In this document: positions 4,304 to 59,757 of the stretch, piece by piece
Numbering within the stretch: position 1 is the first letter of the stretch
How the letters are laid out: every line of letters begins with the position of its first letter
Assembly (NCBI GenBank): GCA_963755915.1
Contig: CAVWLP010000002.1
Span: forward strand, 384,001-448,000
From: an uncultured Phycisphaerales bacterium
GTDB taxonomy: Bacteria; Planctomycetota; Phycisphaerae; Tepidisphaerales; Tepidisphaeraceae
DNA length: 64,000 bases
Direction of reading: 5' to 3'
Translations under genes and position numbers: made by a program
Notes under the pieces: generated by a model
Database searches by the model: none
The model's input: only the letters and a program-made list of their open reading frames with translations
What the model was told of the DNA's origin: nothing

Positions 4304-5152
4304 ATGACGACCTACAACACCACCAAAGTCCGCGGACTAAACCACTTCTATCGCGAGGCTGGCCCCAAGGACGCGCCGACCATCGTCCTTCTCCACGGCT
4401 TCCCGAGCTCCTCCCATATGTATCGCGACCTCATCCCCATGCTCTCCGACAAATTCCATCTGATCGCACCTGATTATGTGGGCTTTGGTTACAGCGCTAT
4501 GCCCTCCGCAAAGGAATTTGAATACACCTTCGACAATCAGGCCGCCTACATCGAGGAGCTGCTTCTCAGCACACTCGACCTGAAAACCTTCAGCATCTAC
4601 GTCCAGGATTACGGCGCTCCAATCGGATTTCGCATCGCGTCAAAAAATCCCGGGGCCATCACGGGGATCATCGCCCAAAACGGCAACGCCTACGCCGAAG
4701 GAATCGGCCCTGGCTTCGACGGAATCAAGCCCCTATGGAAGAATCGCAACCCCGAAACCGAAGCCGCGACTCGCGAGTTACTGACTCTGAAGACGACCAA
4801 ATTCCAATACGTCAACGGCGTCAAGGACGAATCGAAAATCAGCCCCGACGCCTACCACTTCGACCAAATGTTCCTCGACCGCCCCGGCAACGACGCCATC
4901 CAGATCAACCTGCTCTATGACTATCAAAACAATCTGAAGCTCTACGACGGCTGGCACGCCTATTTCAAAAAGTATCAGCCGCGCACGCTCATCACCTGGG
5001 GAACCAACGACGTCTTTTTCCCCGTCGCCGGGGCCAAAGCCTTCCTGCGCGACCTGCCCAAGGCCGAGCTGCACCTGATCGATACGGGCCACTTCGCCCT
5101 TGAAGACAACTGCGAGTTCATCGCCCAGAAAATCAGGAACTTTTTCGCGTAA
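4304..5152 (+). CDS. Alpha/beta hydrolase, epoxide hydrolase/dehalogenase-like (Asp nucleophile)
   Basis: LLHGFPSS, QDYGAPIG, GHFALE; GAGGAG RBS before ATG 4304. Confidence 0.9.
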   Translation: MTTYNTTKVRGLNHFYREAGPKDAPTIVLLHGFPSSSHMYRDLIPMLSDKFHLIAPDYVGFGYSAMPSAKEFEYTFDNQAAYIEELLLSTLDLKTFSIYVQDYGAPIGFRIASKNPGAITGIIAQNGNAYAEGIGPGFDGIKPLWKNRNPETEAATRELLTLKTTKFQYVNGVKDESKISPDAYHFDQMFLDRPGNDAIQINLLYDYQNNLKLYDGWHAYFKKYQPRTLITWGTNDVFFPVAGAKAFLRDLPKAELHLIDTGHFALEDNCEFIAQKIRNFFA

Positions 5153-9922: not shown

Positions 9923-10050
9923 GGGACATAAAGGGGTCACTTCCTATTCTGTCCCCTTCCGTCCATTTATGTAGGTTGGTACGGCCCCCTCGATAAGCCC
10001 AGTCGGTCAGAAATGGATGTGACCCCTTCATGTCCCCCCTTTATGTCCCC
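9923..10050. repeat. REP/MITE-like element with 29-bp inverted arms
   Basis: GGGACATAAAGGGGTCACTTCCTATTCTG (9923-9951) vs CAGAAATGGATGTGACCCCTTCATGTCCC (10008-10036), 25/29; partial arm duplicated after. Confidence 0.7.
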
Positions 10051-10406: not shown

Positions 10407-11174
10407 TTATTCAGGCGGGGGGTTTATCATCAAAGCCTGGGGACTGTTACCTTTTGTACTCAATGCCACCGCACCAACCTTCAATTCCGAAACAAAAGAA
10501 ACAATCGCCTCCGCCGAGGCCTTAGGCTGCGTCTGAAGAACCAGATGCCCCGCAGGCAGATAAGCCACACGCACCGAGGGAAGCGCCCTCTGTACGTCCC
10601 GCAGGTTCCGCTTCACGACAATGAAATCCCGCTGGCCGCGCAGATAAAGAACGGGTATGGGGCACGACTTCAGTTGGCTGGTGACATCCACGCCGATTGC
10701 AGATCGCACCCGATGCGCAATCACTCCCGGCCGGATATCCGCCATCGCCTGCCGGCGAATCGCGGTAAGCTCCGGTTCGGCGTATCCACAAAGCCACGCC
10801 TTCACATTCGCAAAGGGCCGGTACGGCCAAAAGAGAGCCGACAAACACAAATGCCTCAGCCACCCCAGCCTGATCCAAGCCGGATTGCGGATGTACGTTG
10901 CGCAAAGAATCAGCCCCACGAGCCCAGGCGGGCGCGTCGCCGCCGCCATGATCGACAGAGGCCCGGAAAACGATTCACCTACCAGCACAAACGGGACATC
11001 CTTCGGCAAAGCCGACAAAACGCGAGGCAGAAGCTGGGCATACCCCAGCGCCTGATCCGGCGGATACGTCAAAACAATCGGCCGAATCTCCGCGGGAAGA
11101 TGCGGGAGCAGCGGGCGGAACTGTATCCCCGTGCCATCCAGACCCGGCATGAGCACCAGCGCGGTCTCGGTCAC
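10407..11174 (-). CDS. Alpha/beta hydrolase
   Basis: LMPGLDGTG, GESFSG, GHLVLQ. Confidence 0.88.
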   Translation of the reverse strand: MTETALVLMPGLDGTGIQFRPLLPHLPAEIRPIVLTYPPDQALGYAQLLPRVLSALPKDVPFVLVGESFSGPLSIMAAATRPPGLVGLILCATYIRNPAWIRLGWLRHLCLSALFWPYRPFANVKAWLCGYAEPELTAIRRQAMADIRPGVIAHRVRSAIGVDVTSQLKSCPIPVLYLRGQRDFIVVKRNLRDVQRALPSVRVAYLPAGHLVLQTQPKASAEAIVSFVSELKVGAVALSTKGNSPQALMINPPPE

Positions 11175-11178
11175 AGAT

Positions 11179-13104
11179 TTACCCCTCCCTCGCGTAGTAC
11201 TCTTCCTCTAGTTGTTTAAGCTTCTTCCCCAGCGCGCTGAACTCATCGCTCAACTGCTTGCTCCGCCGCGGATCGCGCGCCGTTGCCGAATCAGCGAATT
11301 CCTTCTGGCATTCTCCCAGCGCCACTTCCGTATCGCTGATCTGCCCCTCCAGCTCCTGCAGCGAAAGCCGCCCGAACGGCCGGTTCCACGGATTGTCCGC
11401 CCGCTTCTTTCCCGCCGCCGGCGCCTGTGACGCTCGCGCGCGTGGCGGCTGGGCCTGCGGCCCCTTGGGCTGTTTCTTCGCCGCCGCCTGTCGTTTCGCC
11501 TCTTCGGCCTCCGCGCGGCCCAGGCGGTGTAATTGCCGGTGAACTGCACGATGTCCGGCGGACGCAGGATCAGCAGGCGCGAAACGACCTTGTTCAAAAA
11601 ATACCGGTCATGGCTCACGCACAAAATCGTCCCGGCAAAATCCATCAGCGCCCGCTCCAGCGCTTCGCACGACCGAATGTCCAAGTGATTCGTCGGCTCA
11701 TCCAGCACCAGCACATTCGGGCGATCGATCAGGAGCTGCGCCAGCGCCACCCGCGCCCGCTCGCCGCCGCTGAGCAGGCGCATTGGTTTGTCTACGTCCT
11801 CGCCGCGAAAGAGCATCAGCGCCAGCACCGCCCGCAAATCCACGGGCGAAACATCGCGCTCATCGCGCACCACTTCGGCGACCGTATTGTCCGGATCAAA
11901 ATCCGTCAGTCGCTGATCGTAATACCCGATATTGAGGTTCGCCCCCCAACGGATCTCCCCGCCGTCGGCGTCCCGCCGCGCCAGCAGCACTTCCAAAAGC
12001 GTCGTCTTGCCCGACCCATTGGGGCCGATGATCCCCAAGCGCTCGCCCCGGCGGATTTCCAGGTCGATGCCGGTCCACAGCGCCTTGTTCTCGTACGATT
12101 TGCTCAACTCTTTCACGCTGAGCACGCGGTCGCCCGCGCTGATCGGTCGAGAGCCCCACGCGAATTTTGCGACTGTCCTGCACGCTGCTGATCATCGCGT
12201 CGCTGCGCAGAAGCCGCTCCAGCCTTTTCTTTCGTCCCTGCGCCTTGCGCGCCCGCTGCCCGGCGCTGAACCGGCGAATAAACTCCGACTGCTTCTCAAT
12301 ATCCGCCTGCTGCTGCTCAAAGGCCCGCTGCTGCGAGAGTTCCTGCAACTGCCGCTGCTGGACGAACGCGGAATAATTGCCGGGATACGATTTAATTTGC
12401 GATCCGGTGAGCCAGGCGATGCGATTGGCGAGCCGGTCGAGCAGAAACCGGTCGTGGCTTACGATCAAAACCGCCCCAGCAAAATCCGCCAGATATTCTT
12501 CCAGCCAGGCGATGGCCGTGAGGTCGAGATGGTTTGTCGGCTCATCGAGCAGCAGCAGATCGTTCTGCGCCGTCAGAAGTTTCGCGAGGGCGAGGCGCGA
12601 GCGCTGCCCGCCGGAGAGCGTGCCGACGTTTTGCTCCCAGGTGATTTGCTCGAGCCCTACGCCCAGAAGCGCGGCTTCGAGCTTGTGCCGCCAGGCGTAG
12701 CCGCCGGCGAGTTCAAATTCGTGCTGAACATTCTGGTATTTCTCCAGAACCCGCTCCAGCTCCTCGCCGGTCAGATGGGCCATCTGATGCTCGAGTTCGC
12801 GCTGTTCGTGCGAGAGGCCGTGCAACTTCTCAAACGCCAGCTCCGCCTCGTCGATGACGGTATTGCCGGCGTCAAAAACAGGATCCTGCTCCAGGTGGCC
12901 GATGCGGACATTCTTGGCGATGGCGACGCTGCCGCTGTCGATGACAAGCTGACCGAGGATGGCTTTGAAGAGCGTGCTCTTCCCGCTGCCATTGTCGCCG
13001 ATGAGGCCGACGCGCTCGCCGCGGTCGATGGCGAAGTCGAGCCGATCGAAAAGGACGCGCTTCCCGAAGGTTTTCTCGACGTTGGTGAGGGTGACGATTG
13101 CCAT
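11179..13104 (-). CDS. ABC-F family ATPase (Uup/YheS-like); frameshifts ~12130 and ~11515
   Basis: Two cassettes (GDNGSGKST/LSGGQ/LLDEPTNHLD; GPNGSGKTT/LSGGE/VLDEPTNHLD); coiled-coil tail ...LEEEYYAREG* ends 11179. Confidence 0.92.
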
Positions 13105-13119
13105 AAATCAAATGCGATA

Positions 13120-13229
13120 TTGCCACGGCTCGACTGAGCTCGCCGAAGTCAGATATAGATCAGATAAACACAGATAAAACAATCCCGGCTTCGATTTATC
13201 TGTGTTAATCTGATTTTTATCGGTGGCAA
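13120..13229. repeat. 35-bp inverted-arm palindromic repeat with a 24-nt insertion in the left arm
   Basis: TTGCCAC[24 nt]AGATATAGATCAGATAAACACAGATAAA vs TTTATCTGTGTTAATCTGATTTTTATCGGTGGCAA; 31/35 once insert removed. Confidence 0.85.
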
Positions 13230-18907: not shown

Positions 18908-19433
18908 TGGGCGGAGGGTGAAACCAGAGACCAGAAACCAGGGACTCGCAACCTCGCAACTTCCTAAGGCTTTTTTCCACTGCTCAACTGTTCTACTGCT
19001 CAACTGTCTCGCGCAGCGCCTGTTCCACTTTCTCGCGCAGCGCCGGGCATTGGGTACAAAAGGTAACAGACCGCAACAATATGGGCGGTTTGGGCAGGTT
19101 GGGGAAAATGACTTCGGATGAGACCAGTTCCCGAGAATTTTCGGCTACTTGTGAAGTTTAAATTTGCCTCCGAGGTTCGGCGTCCTAACGCAGCGCTAAT
19201 CTGATTCATATCGCAATTTAAACCTCTGGACTGTTTCCGAACTGCCTCGGTTGTAGCCCGCCGTATTATTTTGGAGCCTGCGGGAGCTTTTTCTCGATCA
19301 AGAATTCGATATTTTTCTTGCAATAATCTGCAATTGCCGGAAGATGACTTCTTCCGGATGGGACGGGCGGGGTCGTTTTAGCTCATTCCACTTCGATACA
19401 TTCTGTTGACCCTGATTTGCCAAGGGAGGAGTC

Positions 19434-29652: not shown

Positions 29653-32649
29653 GTGATGGCACGAGGTAATCGTCCAGGGAGATTTTGCGCATCTGTTTTT
29701 GGCCATAATTCGCCGGCGCCCGTGCCGAACCGTAAAGCCCGCAAAGCCGTTCGCCGCAGGATGATCGCTCCGGCGGCGTATTTCACCGGGCTGGAAGAGC
29801 TGGAAGCGCGGGTTTTGCTTAGCGCCTCTCCAACCCTGATCAACGGCGTGCTTACCTGCACTGGAACCGCGGAACAAACGAACACCATTGACGTTGCCCT
29901 CTCGACGGATGGGAGCACGATTACGGCCACCGTCGATGGCGTGAGCAAGAGCTGCACGGCTTCCTCGGTCGATTCCCTGGTGATCAACGCCGGGACACGC
30001 AGCGATAGCATCAAGGTCGATTCGAACATTCGGATCGACGAAACGATTACCGAGGGGAAAGGCGCGCCGGCATCGGCGGGCAACAGCGGCAGCACGCCCA
30101 GCAGCCCCAGCGGGCCTTCGAGCTCCGGCAGCGGATCGACTACCATCGGAACTTCCAATCCGGGTAGTGGTGCGTCAAGCAGTGGGACATCGAGCAGTGG
30201 TACGTCGAGCAGCGGATCCTCAAACAGCGGGTCATCCAGCAGCGGATCATCGAATAGCGGATCATCGGGACTGAGTTCTTCAGGCCTCGGTTCTTCGGGC
30301 AGCTCGTCGCCGGGCACGTCAAGCTCGGGCAGTAGCTCATCCGGCTCCGGCACCAGCACCTCGGGCAGCAGCTCATCCGGTTTGGGGAGCAGCACCTCGG
30401 GCAATTCGTCGAGCGGGTCGTCTAATTCCGGCAGCAGCTCATCGGGCACAGGCTCATCCGGCACAGGTTCATCCGGCACAAGCTCATCTGGGACCGGATC
30501 GTCCGGCAGCAGCACTTCGGGATCGGGCGGCAGTTCGTCGGGCGCGTCTTCGAGCGGGTCGTCAAATTCTGGCAGCAGTTCGTCGAGCACCGGATCGTCG
30601 CCGACCGGCCCGATTGCTCCGCCACCGCCGAGGCTGGGGAACGGCAACGCGCCGGGGTCCAGCAGCAGCAGCGGCTCCTCCGGATCGACAAGCGGGTCGT
30701 CGAGCAGCGGAACGTCCAGCAGCGGAACCTCGAACAGCGGCTCGTCGAACTCCGGCAGCTCCAGCAGCGGTTCTTCAACAAGCGGATCATCAAGCACGGG
30801 CTCTTCGGCCAGCGGCTCATCCAGCAGCAGCGCATCCAACTCCGGTTCGTCCAGCTCCGGCAGTTCTACCAGCGGGAATGGATCATCCGGCAGCTCTGCC
30901 TCCAGCAGCGGCTCGTCGAACACCGGCTCATCCACGAGCGGTTCATCGAGCAGCGGCTCAAACGGAAGCGGCTCGACCGGCACTCCGACCGCCACGAGCG
31001 GTCCAGGCACTCCCTCGCCGGTGATCACGGTCACCAGCCCCTCGACGGTTCTTCCGCTGGAATCGGTGAACGTTCAGGCGGTAAATTCGAACTTCGGCGA
31101 CGGGACGATCCTGAACAGCACGATCACCTGGAATTTCGGCGACTCCGGCTCGGAGTACAACACGCTGGTCGGCTTCAATGCCGCCCACGCGTATGCGAAT
31201 CCCGGGACTTATACGATCACCCTGTCGATCACCACGCCGGACGGCAACGTGGGCGTGACGACGACGCAGGTGACGATCGAGCCGGACAATCGCCCGACGA
31301 TTTACGTTTCACCGAATGGCAACGACGCGAATGACGGGTCGTCGCCGAGTGATCCGGTACAGAGCCTGGCGGCTGTGCAGAATCTGCTGACGAGCAACGA
31401 GCGCGTGCTCTTCCAGGCCGGCGGCGTTTATTCCTACAGCGGGGCCAACGCCCTGAACCTCGGCGGCTTGAGCGACGTTTACATCGGATCCTATGGGTCC
31501 GGCGCCGCTCCCGTTATCTACTACAACGGCGCAGCCGTCGGTGGGACGATGATCGGGCTCTCCAACACCAGCAGCGGAATCGTCGTGCAGGGACTTCAGT
31601 TCGATTCCATCTACACTAACAACGACGATATCCAGGCAATTCCGACGGCGTTCATCGCCAACGGAAATGACGTCAGCATTCTCAACGACACGTTTTTGAA
31701 CGTGGCCGACGACATCAACCTCGTGCTGGCGCCCACGAATTACCTGATCCAGGACAACTCTTCGCCCAACACCAGCGACTTGAGCGGATATTTCGGCTGG
31801 GTGGCGGGAAGCGAGATTGTGTTCCTCGGCAACACCGTCTCCGGCTCCGCAGGCGAGGCGGACATGCGCGTCGCGGGCGTGACCGACCTGGAGCTGGCGT
31901 ACAACAACTTCACCAATCCGCCGGAGAATTCCGGTGGAACGGTTTCGAAGAACACGCTTTCGACGCAGGTCGGGCAGTATATTTATGCCTATCGCAACAC
32001 GTTCGCGCAGGGACCGGCCAACGCCGGGCCGCTGGGAACCGATGTCGCCAATCCGGACGTGACCCTCACCGACGTGGTGTTTGATTCCAACACGATCAAC
32101 AACACCACGCTGCTGATCACCGCCGGCGCCGAAGACGTCATGATTGAGAACAACGTGATCAACGCCAACGGCGATTCGGGCATCACCATCAACGCCCAGG
32201 AAATCGGCGGCGGGTTCAACTGGACGGTGACCAACGTCTGGATCCTGAACAACACCGTGACCGAGCCCGGCCAGTACGGCGGCTTCCTGGCGATCAACGA
32301 CGGCGAGGCCTCCAACATCGTCATGGATTACAACGTGTTCGACGATCCGAATTTCCAGATCAGCTCAGGTCAGGCATTCGTGACCATCGACGAGAACGAC
32401 ATGAACAGCTTCAGCCAGGTGCTGGATAACGTCTGGTCGACGCCGGCGTGGATCTCGCCCTGGGTCAACGGCGGAATGTTCTTCGTGTCGTCGGATATCA
32501 GCTCGCAGGTGGGCTGGCTGACGCCCGCGGAATGGGAAGCCTCCGGCGTGGCGAGCGGAGACGTGATCATGAACATCAACCTGGGCTCGACTTATCAAGT
32601 GCAGGTGGATGGGTTCACGGCTGGATCAAGCTTGTCGAATGCGTCGTAA
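29653..32649 (+). CDS. Secreted Ser/Gly-rich protein with PKD domain and right-handed beta-helix (paralog 1)
   Basis: LEELEARVLL; ~300-aa SSSG(S/T) tract; WNFGD...HAYANPGTYTITL; IYVSPNGNDANDG; Asn-rich repeats. Confidence 0.85.
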   Translation: MMARGNRPGRFCASVFGHNSPAPVPNRKARKAVRRRMIAPAAYFTGLEELEARVLLSASPTLINGVLTCTGTAEQTNTIDVALSTDGSTITATVDGVSKSCTASSVDSLVINAGTRSDSIKVDSNIRIDETITEGKGAPASAGNSGSTPSSPSGPSSSGSGSTTIGTSNPGSGASSSGTSSSGTSSSGSSNSGSSSSGSSNSGSSGLSSSGLGSSGSSSPGTSSSGSSSSGSGTSTSGSSSSGLGSSTSGNSSSGSSNSGSSSSGTGSSGTGSSGTSSSGTGSSGSSTSGSGGSSSGASSSGSSNSGSSSSSTGSSPTGPIAPPPPRLGNGNAPGSSSSSGSSGSTSGSSSSGTSSSGTSNSGSSNSGSSSSGSSTSGSSSTGSSASGSSSSSASNSGSSSSGSSTSGNGSSGSSASSSGSSNTGSSTSGSSSSGSNGSGSTGTPTATSGPGTPSPVITVTSPSTVLPLESVNVQAVNSNFGDGTILNSTITWNFGDSGSEYNTLVGFNAAHAYANPGTYTITLSITTPDGNVGVTTTQVTIEPDNRPTIYVSPNGNDANDGSSPSDPVQSLAAVQNLLTSNERVLFQAGGVYSYSGANALNLGGLSDVYIGSYGSGAAPVIYYNGAAVGGTMIGLSNTSSGIVVQGLQFDSIYTNNDDIQAIPTAFIANGNDVSILNDTFLNVADDINLVLAPTNYLIQDNSSPNTSDLSGYFGWVAGSEIVFLGNTVSGSAGEADMRVAGVTDLELAYNNFTNPPENSGGTVSKNTLSTQVGQYIYAYRNTFAQGPANAGPLGTDVANPDVTLTDVVFDSNTINNTTLLITAGAEDVMIENNVINANGDSGITINAQEIGGGFNWTVTNVWILNNTVTEPGQYGGFLAINDGEASNIVMDYNVFDDPNFQISSGQAFVTIDENDMNSFSQVLDNVWSTPAWISPWVNGGMFFVSSDISSQVGWLTPAEWEASGVASGDVIMNINLGSTYQVQVDGFTAGSSLSNAS

Positions 32650-37013: not shown

Positions 37014-39442
37014 ATGAAGAAGTACAACCGCAAGTCGTCCCGTCAGGGTCTTGAAGGTCTGGAAAATCGGCAGCTCTTGTCGGCGTGCCTGCTCAACGGT
37101 TCCTCGTTCGAGCTGCACGGCGATGCCAACCAATCCAACACCTTCGTCATTCGCAACGCCTCCAGCAACCGCGTTATCGGCTACGCGAATAACTTTGGCG
37201 AAGTCGTTTCCAGTAACCAGGTTCAGCAGGTCGTCGTTTATCTTGGGAAAGAGGACGACACGGTGACGGTTGCCGGCGGTGTGAATACCCCCGTCGAGGT
37301 GATCTCCTGCGATGGGCAGACCACCTGGATGAAAGCGGGCCAGACGCAGACTTTCCACGGAAACACCAGTGGCGGGACGACCGGCGGGACGACAAGCACA
37401 GGCAAAAAGAAGGACGTTCTGCCGTCGGGCTCGAGCACGAGCGGGTCGTCGAGCTCCGGCTCTTCCAGCTCGGGTACCGGATCGACCGGGTCCTCCACCA
37501 GCGGAAGCTCCAGCAGCGGAACATCCCAAAACGGCTCATCCAGCAGCGGATCTTCCAGCAGCAGCTCCACCGGAAGCGGTTCGTCGCAATCGACCTCTTC
37601 CAGCTCCGGCAGCAGCGCTTCGGGTTCTTCGAACAGCGGCTCCAGCAGCAGCGGAACCTCAAACAGCGGCTCATCGAGCAGCGGAAGCAGCACGTCCAAT
37701 TCCGGCAGCAGCACTTCCGGCAGCGGCAGCACCACGTCGGGGAGCAATAACAACAGCAACGGCCCCACGCCGACTCCCACGCCGCCGTCTTCATCGACGC
37801 CGGATGCAGTGATCACGCTTTCAACCACCGGCACGGTTCTGCCGCTGGAAACCGTCAACGTGGAATCCACGAATTCAACCTTCGGCGACGGCACGCTGCT
37901 CAACAGCAAGATCACCTGGAACTTCGGTGACACGAACTCGGCCTACAACAACAACATCGTGGGCTTCAGCGCCGCGCATGCCTATGCGAACGCCGGGACG
38001 TACACGATCACGATGACCATTATCACGCCCGACGGGCAGGTCTCGGTCGCGACGCAGCAGGTGACGATCTCTCCCGATACCCGGCAGACGATCTACGTCT
38101 CCACCAGCGGCAACGATGCGAACAACGGCCTCTCCGCCAGTGACCCGATTCAAAGCCTGGCGCGCCTCCAGCAGCTTTTGACGAGCAACACCCGGGTCCT
38201 CTTCCAGGCCGGAGACACCTGGACTCTCTCGACGACCAGCGAGATCAGCCTCGGCGAACTTTCGCACGTCTATCTCGGGTCGTACGGAACCGGGCGCAGC
38301 CGACCCTCTATTACGATGGCCCGGTGGGCGGCGGGTCGTTCATCGGGTTCGACAACAATTCGTCGAACATTGTCATTCAGGGCCTGACGTTCGACTCCAT
38401 CTATACCAACAACGACAACAAGCAGGCCATCCCGATGGCGCTGATCCCGACCGGCACCAACATCTCGATCCTCGACAACACGTTCCTGAACGTCGGCGAG
38501 GACGTGAACTTGCAGCTCGCGCCCACCAACGTGCTGGTGCAGGACAATACTTCGCCGAATCCGACGGCGCTCAGCGGCTATTTCGGCTGGGTGGCCGGCC
38601 AGAACATCACGTTCCTCGGCAACACCGTGGCCGCTTCAACCGGCGAGGCGATCATGCGCGTCGCCGGTGTCACCGACCTGGAGCTGGCGTACAACAACTT
38701 CACCAACCCCCCGGAAACCGCCGGTGGCGTTAATGTATCGAAGAACACGCTTTCGACGCAGGTGGGCACGGATGTCTACATTTACAAGAACACCTTCGCC
38801 GACGGCCCCGCCAACGCCGGGCCGCTGGGAACTTCCGTGGCCAATCCGGACGTCACCCTCACCAACGTCGTTTTCGACTCCAACGTGGTGAACGGAACGA
38901 CGATCCTGCTGACGGCGGGCGTCAACGACGTCATGGTCGAAAACAACGTGGTCAACGGCGACAACGGCGCCGGCATCACCATCGACGCCCAGGAAGTCGG
39001 CGGCGGGTTCAACTGGACCGTCACCAACGTCTGGATCGAGCACAACACCGTCACCGAACCGGGACAGTACGGCGGGTTCCTGTATATCAACGATGGACAG
39101 GCATCCAACGTCACCGTCGATTACAACGTGTTCGTCGACCCGAATTACCAGGTCGGCAACGGGCAGGCCTACATCAGCGTCGACGAGAACAACCTCGACA
39201 GTTTCGCGCAGATCAAGGACAACGTCTGGGGCACCCCGGCCTCGATTTCGTCCTGGAACAACGGCGGTATTTTCTTCGTCGGCACCGACCTCAGTTCGCA
39301 GGCGTCCTGGGAGACCATCCAGGAATTCGAATCCACGGGCGTGGCATCCGGCGATGTCATGGAGACAGTCAACCTCGGCAACACCTACAGCGTGACCGCC
39401 GACGGATTCACCGCCGGATCCAACCTGCCGAACAATTCGTAA
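37014..39442 (+). CDS. Secreted Ser/Gly-rich PKD + beta-helix protein (paralog 2; frameshift ~38295)
   Basis: LEGLENRQLL; shorter Ser tract; shared LSGYFGWVAG, VAGVTDLELAYNNFTNPPE, GGGFNWTVTNVWI. Confidence 0.85.
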
Positions 39443-52296: not shown

Positions 52297-53424
52297 CTAA
52301 TGCGCCGCCGCTCCCTGCGCTCCCTTGCCAACGACCAACCACCGCGCCGTCACATTGAACAGCAGCGACATGACGAGAAGAATCAGTGCAATCTCCAGAA
52401 GCGCCGACCGGTCCAAATCCTCCGCCTCCTGAAATTTGCTCGCCAGAAGGCTCGCCATCGTCTGCGCCCGCGAAAAAAACGATAGCGCCATGTGCGGGTT
52501 GTTACCGATCACCATCGTCACCGCCATCGTCTCTCCCGCTGCCCGCGCCAAGCCCAGCATGATTGCCCCGAACAATCCGCTTCGGCAGAAGCCCAGCATC
52601 TCCACCGCGCTCTGCCACCACGTTGCCCCCAGCGCCACCGTCCCCTCAAGCTGCGCCCGCGGCACATTATTCAAAATATCCCGGCTGATGGCCGTGATGA
52701 TCGGAATGATCATGATCCCCAGAATCAGCCCCCCGCACAGCATATCCAGCCCCGTGAGCAGATGCCGATGCCCCTGCTGATCCCAAAACAGCCACCCAAA
52801 TCCCCACACGCCCCCCAGCAAATGAAACGCCCCCGGCTCAACATAATTCCGCAGAAACGGCGCCAGCACGAACAGCCCCCATATCCCATACGCCAGGCTC
52901 GGAATCGCCGCCAGAAATTCGACCAGAAACGAAATTAGCGTCACCAGCCTCCGTGGCGCGATCCGCACCAGAAAAATCGCCGCCCCCAAACTCAGCGGAG
53001 CCGCGATCACCAGCGCCAGCCCCGAACTCACCACCGTCCCGTAAATCATCGGCAGCGCCCCAAACGACGGCGGAATCGTCTCCATCACCACGTTCCCGTC
53101 TTCATCCCGCATGGCTTTCCCGTTGGCATCCAGCCGCGGAACCTCCCGTTCGTTCGGATGCCAGCTCGTTCCGATGAGAAATTGAAATCCGTACCGCTTC
53201 ATGCTCGGCAGCGCCGCCACGATCAGCACCACCAGCAGCGCCCCCAGCATCAGCGCCACCGCCAGCCCCCCCGCCAGCGCCAAGCCGTGCATGATCAGAT
53301 CGACATGCAGCCACTGCCGCCGCTCACGCGTCAGCGGAGGATGGGGTGGGGCCTGATGGGCCGGCGGCCCCGAATCCGCCCCCGAACCCGTCCCGCCGAG
53401 ATTGGACACAGGAATATCCGACAT
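52297..53424 (-). CDS. pstC: Phosphate ABC transporter permease PstC
   Basis: LAAIPSLAYGIWG, ALGATWW, RAAGETMAVTMVIGN; ATG at 53424 (in frame with PstS as assembled). Confidence 0.88.
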   Translation of the reverse strand: MSDIPVSNLGGTGSGADSGPPAHQAPPHPPLTRERRQWLHVDLIMHGLALAGGLAVALMLGALLVVLIVAALPSMKRYGFQFLIGTSWHPNEREVPRLDANGKAMRDEDGNVVMETIPPSFGALPMIYGTVVSSGLALVIAAPLSLGAAIFLVRIAPRRLVTLISFLVEFLAAIPSLAYGIWGLFVLAPFLRNYVEPGAFHLLGGVWGFGWLFWDQQGHRHLLTGLDMLCGGLILGIMIIPIITAISRDILNNVPRAQLEGTVALGATWWQSAVEMLGFCRSGLFGAIMLGLARAAGETMAVTMVIGNNPHMALSFFSRAQTMASLLASKFQEAEDLDRSALLEIALILLVMSLLFNVTARWLVVGKGAQGAAAH

Positions 53425-53428
53425 CTTT

Positions 53429-54453
53429 CTATTGCTGCGCCGCGCGCCGTTGAACGTCAGGCTCGCAATATTCGCCTGCGCTTTCTTCACCACCGCGTCC
53501 GGCAGGGGCGCATATTCGTGCTGGCTCGCCAGCTTCTGCCCGACCGTTTCCGCCCAGTTCAAAAACTTGATCAGCGCGGAAACTCGGGCCTTGTCCCCAA
53601 GATAACTCAAATCCCGATGCACCAGAATATAGGTGAACGAAGAAATCGGATACGCATCGGCCCCGTCCGCATTGAGAATATTCGCCGGAATCCGATCCGC
53701 CGCCGCGGCCGCCGACGTCACCGATGCCAGCGTCGGCTTGATAAAGTTCCCCGTTTTATTCCGCAGCAGCGCCATCGACACATCGTTCGCCAGCGCATAA
53801 TTCAGCTCCACATACCCAATCGCCCCCGGTATCCCTTTCACGATCGCCGTCACGCCATTGTTCGCCTCAGCCCCCTGCCCCACCGGCCACTCGACCGACT
53901 TCCCCTCCCCCACCTTCGCCGCGAATTCATCGCTCAGCCCCGTCAGATACGCGCTGAATACCGCATTCGTCCCGCTCCCGTCACTCCGATAAACCGGCGT
54001 AATCGCCTCGCTCGGCAACGCCACCCCCGGATTCAGCGCCACAATCTCCGGATCATTCCAGTCGGTAACCTTCCCCAAATAAATATCAACCAGCAGCGGC
54101 CCCGTCAGCTTCAGATCCGAACTCAGCCCCGGCAGGTTATAAGCCGCCACCACCGCCCCCGCACAAACCGGCACATACACCACGTCCCCCGCATCGGAGA
54201 ATTCCTTCTTCGAAAGCTTCACATCCGAGCCCGCAAAGTCCACGGTCTTATTGGTAATCGCCTTAATCCCCCCACCCGACCCGCTCCCCTGATAATCGAT
54301 CATGATGTCCGGATTGTCATCATGAAACCTTGAGATCCAAACATCATAAAGCGGCTTGGGAAACGTCGCCCCCTCCCCCTTCAGGCTCACGCTCCCCCAC
54401 AGCGAACCGCCGCAAACCCCCAGGAGAATCATTGTGATTAAAACGCGCCACAT
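53429..54453 (-). CDS. pstS: Phosphate-binding protein PstS
   Basis: GATFPKPLY, GSGGGI, DFAGSD, RSDGSGT, YPISSFTY; likely true stop TAG at 53431-53429 after a one-base indel. Confidence 0.88.
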
Positions 54454-54480: not shown

Positions 54481-54523
54481 CCCACGGACTTCGGTGAGCG
54501 CAGTCGAACCGCGCCGCCGTGGG
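54481..54523. repeat. Short palindrome interrupted by the 24-nt module (inverted copy)
   Basis: CCCACG[GACTTCGGTGAGCGCAGTCGAACC]GCGCCGCCGTGGG. Confidence 0.8.
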
Positions 54524-58233: not shown

Positions 58234-59757
58234 TTCGCCTCGACGATCGCCCGAACCAACCCGTCAATATTAAACGTCTTCGCCTCAACTGCCGGCGTCA
58301 AACCCGCCTCGCGCAGCGACGAAGTCGTGATCGGCCCGATGCTCGCCAGCTTGATGCGCCCAGCGCCCCGCGGTTCGCTTCCCCCATGAGATTCACAAAA
58401 TTCCGCACTGTGCTGCTGCTGCTGAATGTGATCCAATTGACCTTGCCTGTCACGAGCGATTCGATCAATCCGGCCGGAAATTCCGTCGCCGTTCGCGTTT
58501 CGTAGATAGCAACATCCCTCACTTCCGCGGCGCCCGCTTCGATCAGCCGCTGCCGTAGCAGCGGCCGCGCGATATCCGCCCGCAAGAGCAAAAACCTTCG
58601 CCCCGCCACTTCATCCCGCCCTGCAAGTTCGTCCGCCAGCGCCTCCGCCACGAATGCTTTCGGACACAAATCGACTCTCAGGCACAGCTCCCGCTCGATC
58701 GCCTCCGCGGTCGCCTGCCCAATCGCCGCCAGCTTCGCTTTCCCAAAAACCCGCGCATCCTGCCCCATTGCCGCCAGACGCCGCCACGCCGCCGCCACGC
58801 CGTTAACGCTGGTAAAACAGACCCAGTCGAATTCCCCCGCATCCTTCAGCGCCGAATCGATCTCGCGCCAATCCGCCGGCTCATGGAGTTCAATCGTCGG
58901 CGCCTCGATCACGTTCGCCCCCAGCTCTTCGAGCCTCGCCGAGATCTCGCTCGCCTGGTGCCGCGAGCGCGTCACCACGATCGTCTGCCCAAACAGCGGC
59001 CGCTTCTCTACCCACGCCAGCGTTTCCCGGAGCTGTACGACTTTCCCGATAATCGTCATCGCCGGCGCCCGCAATCCCGCGGCCGCAATATCCTCAGCAA
59101 GCTTTCCGAGCGTCGAGACCACGGTCCGCTGCTCCGGCATCGTCCCCCACTGAATCGTCGCCGCCGGCATTTGCGGCGACATCCCATTCTCAATCAGCCG
59201 GCTGCAAATCCGCGGCAGCGATTTCACCCCCATGTAAAACGCCACGCAAGGAAGCTTCGCGATCGCCTCCCACGCAATATCCGCCGCCGGCTCCCCATCC
59301 TCCCGCTCGTGCCCCGTAAGCAGCGTAAAGCTCGAATTGAAATCCCGATGCGTCACCGGAATCCCCGCGTATGCCGGCGCGGCAATCGCCGCCGTCACTC
59401 CCGGCACCACCTCAAACGCCACCCCGGCGTCCACCATCGCCTGGCATTCCTCCCCCCGCGCCCGAAGACAAACGGATCTCCCCCCTTCAGCCGCACCACG
59501 CGTTTCCCCGCCCGCGCCTTCTCAACCAGCAGCGCGTTAATCTGTTCCTGCGGCATCGAATGATCCGCCGCCTTCTTCCCCACATAAATCACTTCCGCCC
59601 GGGGGCAATAACTAAGCAGTTTTGGATTAGACAGGTAGTCATAGACCACTACGTCCGCCTGTTCCAATAATTTCGCCCCGCGCACAGTGATAAGGCCGGG
59701 ATCGCCGGGACCGGCGCCCACGAGAAAAACAATTCCCTGGTAAAGCGGCGTGCTCAT
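58230..59757 (-). CDS. cobA: Fused uroporphyrinogen-III C-methyltransferase/synthase CobA-HemD (frameshifts ~59450, ~58360)
   Basis: [62 protein letters not shown]. Confidence 0.92.

Follow-up and report, generated by a model that had tools for sequence, protein, structure and literature searches.

A 24-nt sequence interrupts two palindromic repeats within the 64,000-nt stretch of DNA analysed here (the window). The question raised by this locus is whether such a short sequence is a mobile element in its own right and, if so, what moves it. The initial annotation described the 24-mer GGCTCGACTGAGCTCGCCGAAGTC at 13127-13150 on the forward strand and its inverted recurrence at 54487-54510, with 21 of 24 bases identical; both positions and the identity were confirmed. 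The second site is the only other match in the window at up to three mismatches. Searches at up to eight mismatches and with a profile found no further copy in the 64-kb window, the rest of which holds no position closer than seven mismatches to the 24-mer. Copy 2 is a member of a subfamily marked by T and A at positions 3 and 16, respectively, and has one private change at position 11.

Each copy interrupts a different palindrome, as had been described. Copy 1, which lies 22 nt upstream of an ATG start codon (13104), splits one arm of a palindrome rich in A+T. Copy 2, 33 nt upstream of another ATG (54453), occupies a hairpin tip rich in G+C (Table 1). When the 24-mer is removed from site 1, the two parts of the left arm join into a 35-nt arm that matches the reverse complement of the right arm at 31 of 35 positions; with the 24-mer retained, just 27 nt align. 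The right arm reads C|C where the insertion point corresponds. At site 2, removal joins the two hairpin parts into an 8-bp stem with a 3-nt loop. Both restored structures reproduce those proposed in the initial annotation. A C precedes each copy and is also the last base of each. Translation of frame +1 gives the eight stop-free codons that had been predicted at site 1 (GSTELAEV) and GSTALTEV at site 2, and a stop codon is present in one of the six frames of each copy.

Table 1. Features of the two interrupted palindromes and their neighbouring genes, in window coordinates
Feature	Position	Strand	Remarks
Copy 1	13127..13150	+	identical to the family's commonest form; profile E 1.5e-9
Copy 2	54487..54510	-	21/24 to copy 1; profile E 5e-6
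Site-1 palindrome, interrupted left arm, outer 7 nt	13120..13126	.	joins 13151-13178 once the insert is removed
Site-1 palindrome, left arm, inner 28 nt, A+T-rich	13151..13178	.	
Site-1 palindrome, 16-nt centre	13179..13194	.	
Site-1 palindrome, uninterrupted right arm	13195..13229	.	within-locus 'empty site'
Site-2 G+C-rich hairpin, left part	54481..54486	.	
Site-2 hairpin remainder: left-stem end, 3-nt loop, right stem	54511..54523	.	
ABC-F type ATPase gene, downstream of site 1	11899..13104	-	Pfam ABC_tran, ABC_tran_Xtn; context only
Phosphate-binding protein/permease fusion gene (pstS-type), downstream of site 2	52300..54453	-	PBP_like_2; context only

Several other features of the window were recorded. 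The ABC-F gene seems frameshifted (11250-13104, minus strand): its translation is senseless beyond about residue 330, only one ABC domain was found, and another ORF (11250-12125) runs into the end of the gene. Two ORFs at 58301-59757 on the minus strand each hold part of a tetrapyrrole methylase domain (profile positions 2-99 and 107-212), likely because of a frameshift. Two paralogous PKD-domain genes (29653-32646 and 37014-39439) are about 71-78% identical over several hundred nucleotides and contain 15-nt periodic repeats at 30150-31000 and 37430-37730. Other intergenic palindromes or inverted repeats lie at 2908-2966, at 9923-10036, and at 10438-10467 with 19046-19075; their arms are 29-32 nt long and 84-93% complementary, and they are unrelated to the two host palindromes. 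No tRNA was found in the window.

Within the window, the pair of copies carries little statistical weight. Shuffling the window with the pattern fixed gave 0.00 expected matches, a value that overstates the significance since the shuffle takes no account of the reader's free choice of pattern. In an all-against-all comparison of the window, six inverted pairs of 24-mers matched at 21 or more positions. Palindrome arms account for three and the present pair for one; the other two, each matching at 21/24 (13077/38847 and 39979/42115), have no evident meaning. A binomial estimate predicts about 0.8 such inverted pairs per orientation in the window. Given this expectation and the two meaningless pairs, the window pair alone is not beyond chance. 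The significance comes from outside the window, where the sequence occurs at no fewer than 123 loci, and from a profile built from 128 copies of other genomes that recovers exactly the two window sites (next best E 0.52). Chance similarity between two 24-mers, to which the two further inverted pairs lend some colour, is refuted by these outside data and not by the window pair: both copies fit a family defined in other genomes by the scan, the conserved positions and the profile. We give it a negligible probability.

The genome scan covered one genome per species and used a 19-base core pattern with two variable positions left open. It returned at least 123 loci in about 96 assemblies (a hand count of accession prefixes) carrying at least 15 phylum labels, compared with a chance expectation of about 4 loci at equal base frequencies and about 12 at 60% G+C. 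The initial annotation had made its reading depend on there being more than two copies with unlike flanks; flanks were unrelated among the loci recovered. By title, the matches listed comprise about 47 loci of Planctomycetota, 19 of Chloroflexota, 12 of Desulfobacterota or 'delta proteobacteria', 10 of Verrucomicrobiota plus 2 of Victivallales, 6 each of Bdellovibrionota and Latescibacterota, 5 of Nitrospirota, 4 of Acidobacteriota and 2 of Nitrospinota. Also among the matches listed are single loci of Gemmatimonadota, Abyssobacteria, Tectomicrobia, Aegiribacteria, Sumerlaeota and Chlorobiales. The scan sets lower bounds on host range and copy number, and the phylum labels are those of record titles, for which misbinning of metagenome-assembled genomes (MAGs) is possible, most clearly for the only archaeal label. 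This label belongs to L076, a contig binned as Promethearchaeota with one copy inside a membrane-protein ORF; either the host is archaeal or the contig is misbinned.

From 632 kb of loci we collected 128 distinct copies with at most three mismatches. Several positions outside the search pattern are nearly constant: a C precedes the element in 125 of 128 copies, G occupies position 1 in 122 and C position 3 in 116. Position 2 is variable (G in 84 copies, A in 42) without a partner change elsewhere. T at position 3 is accompanied by A at position 16 in 7 of 11 T copies compared to 5 of 117 others, a pairing that could be a compensatory change in a shared hairpin but may simply mark a subfamily. 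The element is G+C-rich, begins with GGCT or GACT, ends with AGTC, and is sparse, with a few copies per 100 kb at most.

A BLAST search of plasmids with 30 nt gave matches of 26-27 nt at 92-100% identity in five plasmids of Picosynechococcus strains PCC 7002, 7117 and 8807. Eleven other plasmid records, including one of Xanthomonas, matched at E 0.4-5; only the Picosynechococcus matches are convincing. Orthologous Picosynechococcus plasmid copies differ by one base, at position 2. The surroundings of these copies are unusual in composition. Copies lie in T-poor tracts of about 650 nt (L124 and L125, 2150-2800; L127, 3450-4100; L126, 3950-4100), with 8-11 T per 630 nt on one strand in L124 and L125; the near absence of T means that this strand holds no stop codons. 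In L124, L125 and L127 the tract adjoins a 'DNA/RNA non-specific endonuclease' gene. The pAQ6 copy (L128, 4001-4026) is within another hairpin-like element, 126 nt upstream of csx18-cas1-cas2. In phages, no match extended over more than 70% of the query, and only partial matches of 16-21 nt were seen. No match was found among 5,426 complete E. coli genomes.

All of the scan loci are titled MAG or Candidatus, as would be expected if the element were an artefact of sequencing, assembly or binning. However, its presence in the finished plasmids of cultured Picosynechococcus, with orthologous copies one base apart, shows that it is not a MAG artefact. Furthermore, the contig names read as those of several assemblers and of long-read chromosomes, and the copies are diverged and nested. 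An artefact thus has practically no probability in our judgement. The two window copies belong to a real family that is near-constant across many bacterial phyla.

Copies that have inserted into other copies define the unit. Nine of the 128 copies are exact insertions, in the same orientation, inside another copy: after position 17 in five cases, after position 13 in two and after position 8 in two, all of them C|Y. The outer pieces sum to 24 nt in each, with mismatches solely at variable positions, so that two 24-nt units are reconstituted. It follows that the unit is 24 nt and leaves no target duplication. Decayed or inverted nestings were seen in L002, L073, L086, L097, L102 and L120, and head-to-tail tandem copies were absent from the 632 kb of loci. 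The nested copies and the gaps in orthologous proteins described below agree that nothing beyond the C is duplicated, which upholds the description given for the two window sites. Since C both precedes and ends the element, the cut points can be shifted by one base.

The target also has a consistent local sequence. Position -2 is a purine in 104 of 128 copies, position +1 a pyrimidine in 104 and position +2 a G in 74, so that the preference approximates R-C|Y-G. Hairpin tips were examined by deleting the insert and looking for a perfect stem within 8 nt of the junction, with 5000 C|Y positions from the same loci as controls. Stems of at least 7 bp were found at the insertion point of 16 of 124 copies and in 0.96% of controls, and stems of at least 8 bp in 13 of 124 copies and 0.3% of controls. 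This enrichment of more than tenfold is an upper estimate, because the controls mix coding and non-coding DNA. Terminator-like hairpins host the element in L106, L054 and L014, and in L038 it lies in the loop of a REP directly after the stop codon of a RAYT-like gene. The element inserts precisely 3' of a C, usually before a pyrimidine and without target duplication, and its preferred targets are the tips of hairpins and palindromes (REPs and terminators), its own copies, and sister 24-nt elements. Unrelated flanks, nesting, hairpin-tip enrichment and the L038 REP loop bear out the proposal of a minimal non-autonomous element that lands in palindromic repeats.

The initial annotation also suggested that the element could insert in frame into proteins. 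We examined 30 ORFs that span a copy, each with an excess of G+C at third positions. The insert falls within a continuous Pfam match in five of them (L021, penicillin amidase; L043, pyruvate kinase; L084, PurH; L114, GAF domain; L119, PfkB kinase) and between two matched domains in five (L042; the second site of L043; L053, RuvA; L066; L096, photolyase). Ten ORFs have no Pfam match, and at least two of these are antisense frames; in the remaining Pfam-matched ORFs the insert lies before or after the matched domains. The Pfam-supported ORFs include copies in either orientation to the host gene, and each of the five stop-free frames is used. With five of six frames free of stop codons, the element is tolerated in genes as an insert of eight residues.

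Orthologous enzymes provide both filled and empty sites, the comparison that the initial annotation had called for, and in pyruvate kinase and penicillin amidase they differ by exactly eight residues. For penicillin amidase, the peptide DFGELSRA is confined to the query's own cluster, and all ten of the next homologues (64-89% identity over the region) have an exact eight-residue gap between conserved flanks. For pyruvate kinase, 14 sequences with 84-93% identity to the query were compared; the query is 513 residues long and most orthologues measure 473. At the first site, orthologues have no insert, a short insert, or extensions in eight-residue steps (479, 487 and 495 residues), and the query and its nearest relative have the 24-mer nested within this insert. 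At the second site the states are no insert, one eight-residue insert (GPSTSSGH) and, in the query, two inserts, with a diverged 24-mer nested in one of them. These states indicate at least two sister families with a 24-nt step. The sister elements, with peptides GPSTSSGH and ARSLTRSS, lie at 4480-4560 and 4990-5030 of L043 on the minus strand; the 24-mer is nested in both and enters them at the point that matches its own position-13 hot spot. The sister-element motifs had no match in the literature searched.

While the family as a whole is mobile, the history of the two window copies admits more than one reading. Each is contained in a composite of about 45-70 nt, hairpin plus 24-mer, that recurs in other Phycisphaerales genomes, so the window copies may have arrived with their host repeats. 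L083 and L089, from two other Phycisphaerales assemblies, have only the hairpin and 24-mer in common with site 2 (48-70 nt). They were rejected as orthologues of site 2, as the similarity ends at the composite and there is no adjoining pstS. L104 and L029 have 29-44 nt in common with site 1, a stretch that takes in the border between the 24-mer and the A+T-rich arm. If the 24-mer were a fixed part of larger lineage-specific repeats and the window copies had spread with their palindromes, these recurrences would be expected, as would the finding that no empty site-2 hairpin occurs in the window and collected loci. However, site 1 has an empty counterpart within its own palindrome, whose other arm is uninterrupted and is the only empty site seen for the window copies, and variants of the 24-mer differ between composites, which also fits repeated hits on a hot spot. 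For the family as a whole this explanation fails, given the unrelated flanks at more than 100 loci, the nested copies and the eight-residue gaps in orthologues. We consider it doubtful for the window copies, and two readings of the composites stand side by side: host repeats are hot spots that were struck repeatedly, or composites spread as units. A different view is that the 24-mer is a conserved functional site, such as a protein- or RNA-binding hairpin, held by selection and not a mobile insert. The extreme constancy of the sequence and the position of both window copies 22-33 nt upstream of start codons would suit such a site. Nevertheless, copies occupy coding DNA in either orientation and in five frames, they also occur in the loops of terminators and within one another, and no Rfam family matches: the window has zero matches at the gathering score and, at E of 10 or below, generic hairpin matches alone, far below the cut-off. 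A functional site is accordingly very improbable, and we conclude that the 24-mer is a non-autonomous micro-transposon.

Whatever moves it is probably encoded elsewhere. As had been stated, there is no mobilising enzyme in the window: a domain scan of the 57 window ORFs found no transposase, integrase, HUH, reverse transcriptase (RT) or DDE family match. The presence of both orientations in host genes, the C shared by element and target ends and the lack of duplication point to a mechanism at the DNA level, and the two orientations relative to host genes also disfavour reverse splicing into host mRNA. IS200/IS605 TnpA and RAYT enzymes cut 3' of a short motif, make no duplication and act on hairpin substrates. 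By analogy with this behaviour, the enzyme acting in trans would most plausibly be an HUH/Y1 nuclease-ligase with specificity for sequence and structure, similar to IS200/IS605 TnpA or RAYT, working on single-stranded DNA. Cleavage would fall 3' of the C at both ends of the element, which would then be ligated into a C|Y exposed in a single-stranded loop. Its ends could be juxtaposed by their 4-nt inverted repeat (initial GACT/GGCT, final AGTC) together with a weak internal hairpin; the last four bases can pair with the first four or with positions 6-9, and this may bring the cut sites together. A stable hairpin of the element itself finds no support in the energy of its weak fold, -3.3 kcal/mol (z -0.39); the proposed stem with two G-A mismatches, read from the sequence, is resembled only by the site-2 fold. 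Local GC skew at 38 loci is negative in 26 and positive in 12, a weak replication-strand bias.

Besides the weak fold and the weak strand bias, some further observations count against the HUH/Y1 route. RAYT-like ORFs are present in only two (L038 and L003) of about 80 loci of at least 1.5 kb, 24 nt is too short for two subterminal hairpins of the IS200/IS605 type, and near-identity across phyla is unlike lineage-specific REP-RAYT pairs. The initial annotation had proposed looking for a RAYT or HUH gene flanked by the 24-mer; the L038 gene is flanked by its own GTAG-type repeat, and the 24-mer only interrupts one of these. The gene itself (L038, 1150-1900) is RAYT-like, encodes 148 aa with an HUH motif and has GTAG-type REPs on its flanks. 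An all-against-all BLAST of 2491 locus ORFs found no recurrent neighbour gene other than ABC ATPases, at six loci, and the two RAYT-like ORFs. Neither suffices to establish an association, and ABC ATPases are a common family. A RAYT/HUH link is something that we infer for this element.

The main rival to the HUH/Y1 route is an RNA-based one, in which an RT copies the 24 nt from a conserved RNA template at nicked C|Y sites, or an RNA copy of the element serves as its intermediate. A conserved template would account more easily than copies begetting copies for a constant sequence under so many phylum labels, the single C shared by both junctions could be a primer-alignment base, and an annotated RT gene lies about 2 kb from the copy in the Picosynechococcus plasmid pAQ5 (L125). 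However, the orthologous plasmid regions of PCC 8807 and PCC 7117 have no RT in the stretch viewed, nor does any window ORF. Repeated templated addition should also yield some head-to-tail tandems, which the collected loci lack, and a single genome can hold subfamilies distinguished by positions 2, 3 and 16 (as in the window and in L028/L089/L113). We regard this route as unlikely. The reading that we prefer, with somewhat better than even confidence, is that both window sites are copies of an exact 24-nt (8-codon) non-autonomous mobile element that probably moves in trans by an HUH/Y1-type single-strand mechanism. A bolder proposal, which we put forward tentatively as possible, is that the element is one family in a cross-phylum class of mobile elements of exactly 24 nt (8 codons), to which the sister families of the pyruvate kinase genes also belong. 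Each fixed sequence would be placed at exposed C|Y positions in hairpin loops by a horizontally spread and hitherto unrecognised machinery, which could be a new kind of HUH enzyme or an RNA-templated RT.

A mobile unit of 24 nt, with precise insertion and a sequence retained from phylum to phylum, lies at the lower size limit of mobile DNA, and its conservation implies a widespread enzyme or template not yet tied to the element. The element alters terminators, REPs and promoter-proximal hairpins and adds eight residues to conserved enzymes, which makes it relevant to genome annotation, alignment-based phylogeny and the origin of protein indels. Machinery that places a defined 24-nt tag at hairpin tips is a possible tool, and the occurrence of the element in cultured, transformable strains of Picosynechococcus makes the question accessible to experiment. 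Should the cross-phylum class of 24-nt elements prove real, no smaller or more widely distributed mobile DNA would be known in prokaryotes, and it would be a source of eight-residue protein indels in general.

Compared with known systems, the 24-nt element departs from REPs, MITEs and IS200/IS605 derivatives in features that define them. REPs have an extragenic location, a high copy number and a restriction to particular lineages. The element resembles REP/REPIN-RAYT systems in its size range (20-40 nt), its association with hairpins, the lack of target duplication and its non-autonomy. It differs in being also intragenic, inside Pfam domains in five ORFs and between them in five, and in being sparse and cross-phylum; it interrupts REPs and is not itself a REP. 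REPs carry GTAG or CGTC tags (PMC3733652) and flank their RAYT gene (PMC3116915). In contrast, the 24-nt element has ends of the form GGCT/GACT...AGTC without either tag, and no cognate RAYT gene flanked by it was found: the window has no RAYT, and the repeat that flanks the L038 gene is a different one.

IS200/IS605 elements have two subterminal hairpins, a length of at least about 100 nt, a tetra- or pentanucleotide target and a known cognate TnpA. With these and with PATEs the 24-nt element shares insertion 3' of a short motif without duplication, a biology of single strands and hairpins, and a 3' end that finishes in the same base as the target. However, its target motif is a C preceded by a purine, it cannot hold two subterminal hairpins, and no cognate TnpA is known for it. 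Rickettsia palindromic elements (RPEs) are palindromic repeats that, like the present inserts, occur in frame within protein-coding genes, but RPEs are longer (about 100-150 bp) and confined to one genus, whereas the 24-nt element is cross-phylum. MITEs are likewise short and non-autonomous, but have terminal inverted repeats of at least 10 nt and target-site duplications, while the 24-nt element has only 4 nt of terminal complementarity and no duplication.

Of the kinds described so far, the nearest are the small dispersed repeats (SDRs) of Nostocaceae (SDR1-8; Elhai et al. 2008, Genome Res 18:1484), which are reportedly 21-27 nt long. They are said to nest within their own copies and to have been recently mobile, and an RNA intermediate has reportedly been suggested for the cyanobacterial SDRs. 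We know of no enzyme for them. SDR5 is 21 nt long, has an unknown function and occurs in a few heterocystous cyanobacteria (PMC13756078), and it is inserted precisely between bases 3 and 4 of HIP1 (PMC4390886). SDR-like repeats were not found outside Nostocaceae (PMC5861425), SDRs receive passing mention only in two articles (PMC3116915 and PMC2884548), and the articles found to cite Elhai 2008 contain no extension of SDRs beyond cyanobacteria. The 21-mer, its complement and its peptides had no match in the literature searched, where we also found no published description of the element.

In behaviour the element most resembles SDRs, a likening that we draw from descriptions of SDRs and not from their sequences. 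The likeness extends to its length of 24 nt, its dispersed copies (128 in 632 kb of loci and two in the window), its self-nesting (9/128 exact), its presence or absence at orthologous sites (penicillin amidase and pyruvate kinase) and its insertion at an exact position within a short palindrome, with no known enzyme. It differs from SDRs in being G+C-rich, in being near-identical in at least 15 phylum labels and in Picosynechococcus plasmids, all outside Nostocaceae, and in having been shown inside conserved enzymes. What is new relative to SDRs is therefore an SDR-like element that is G+C-rich, cross-phylum and demonstrably present in proteins.
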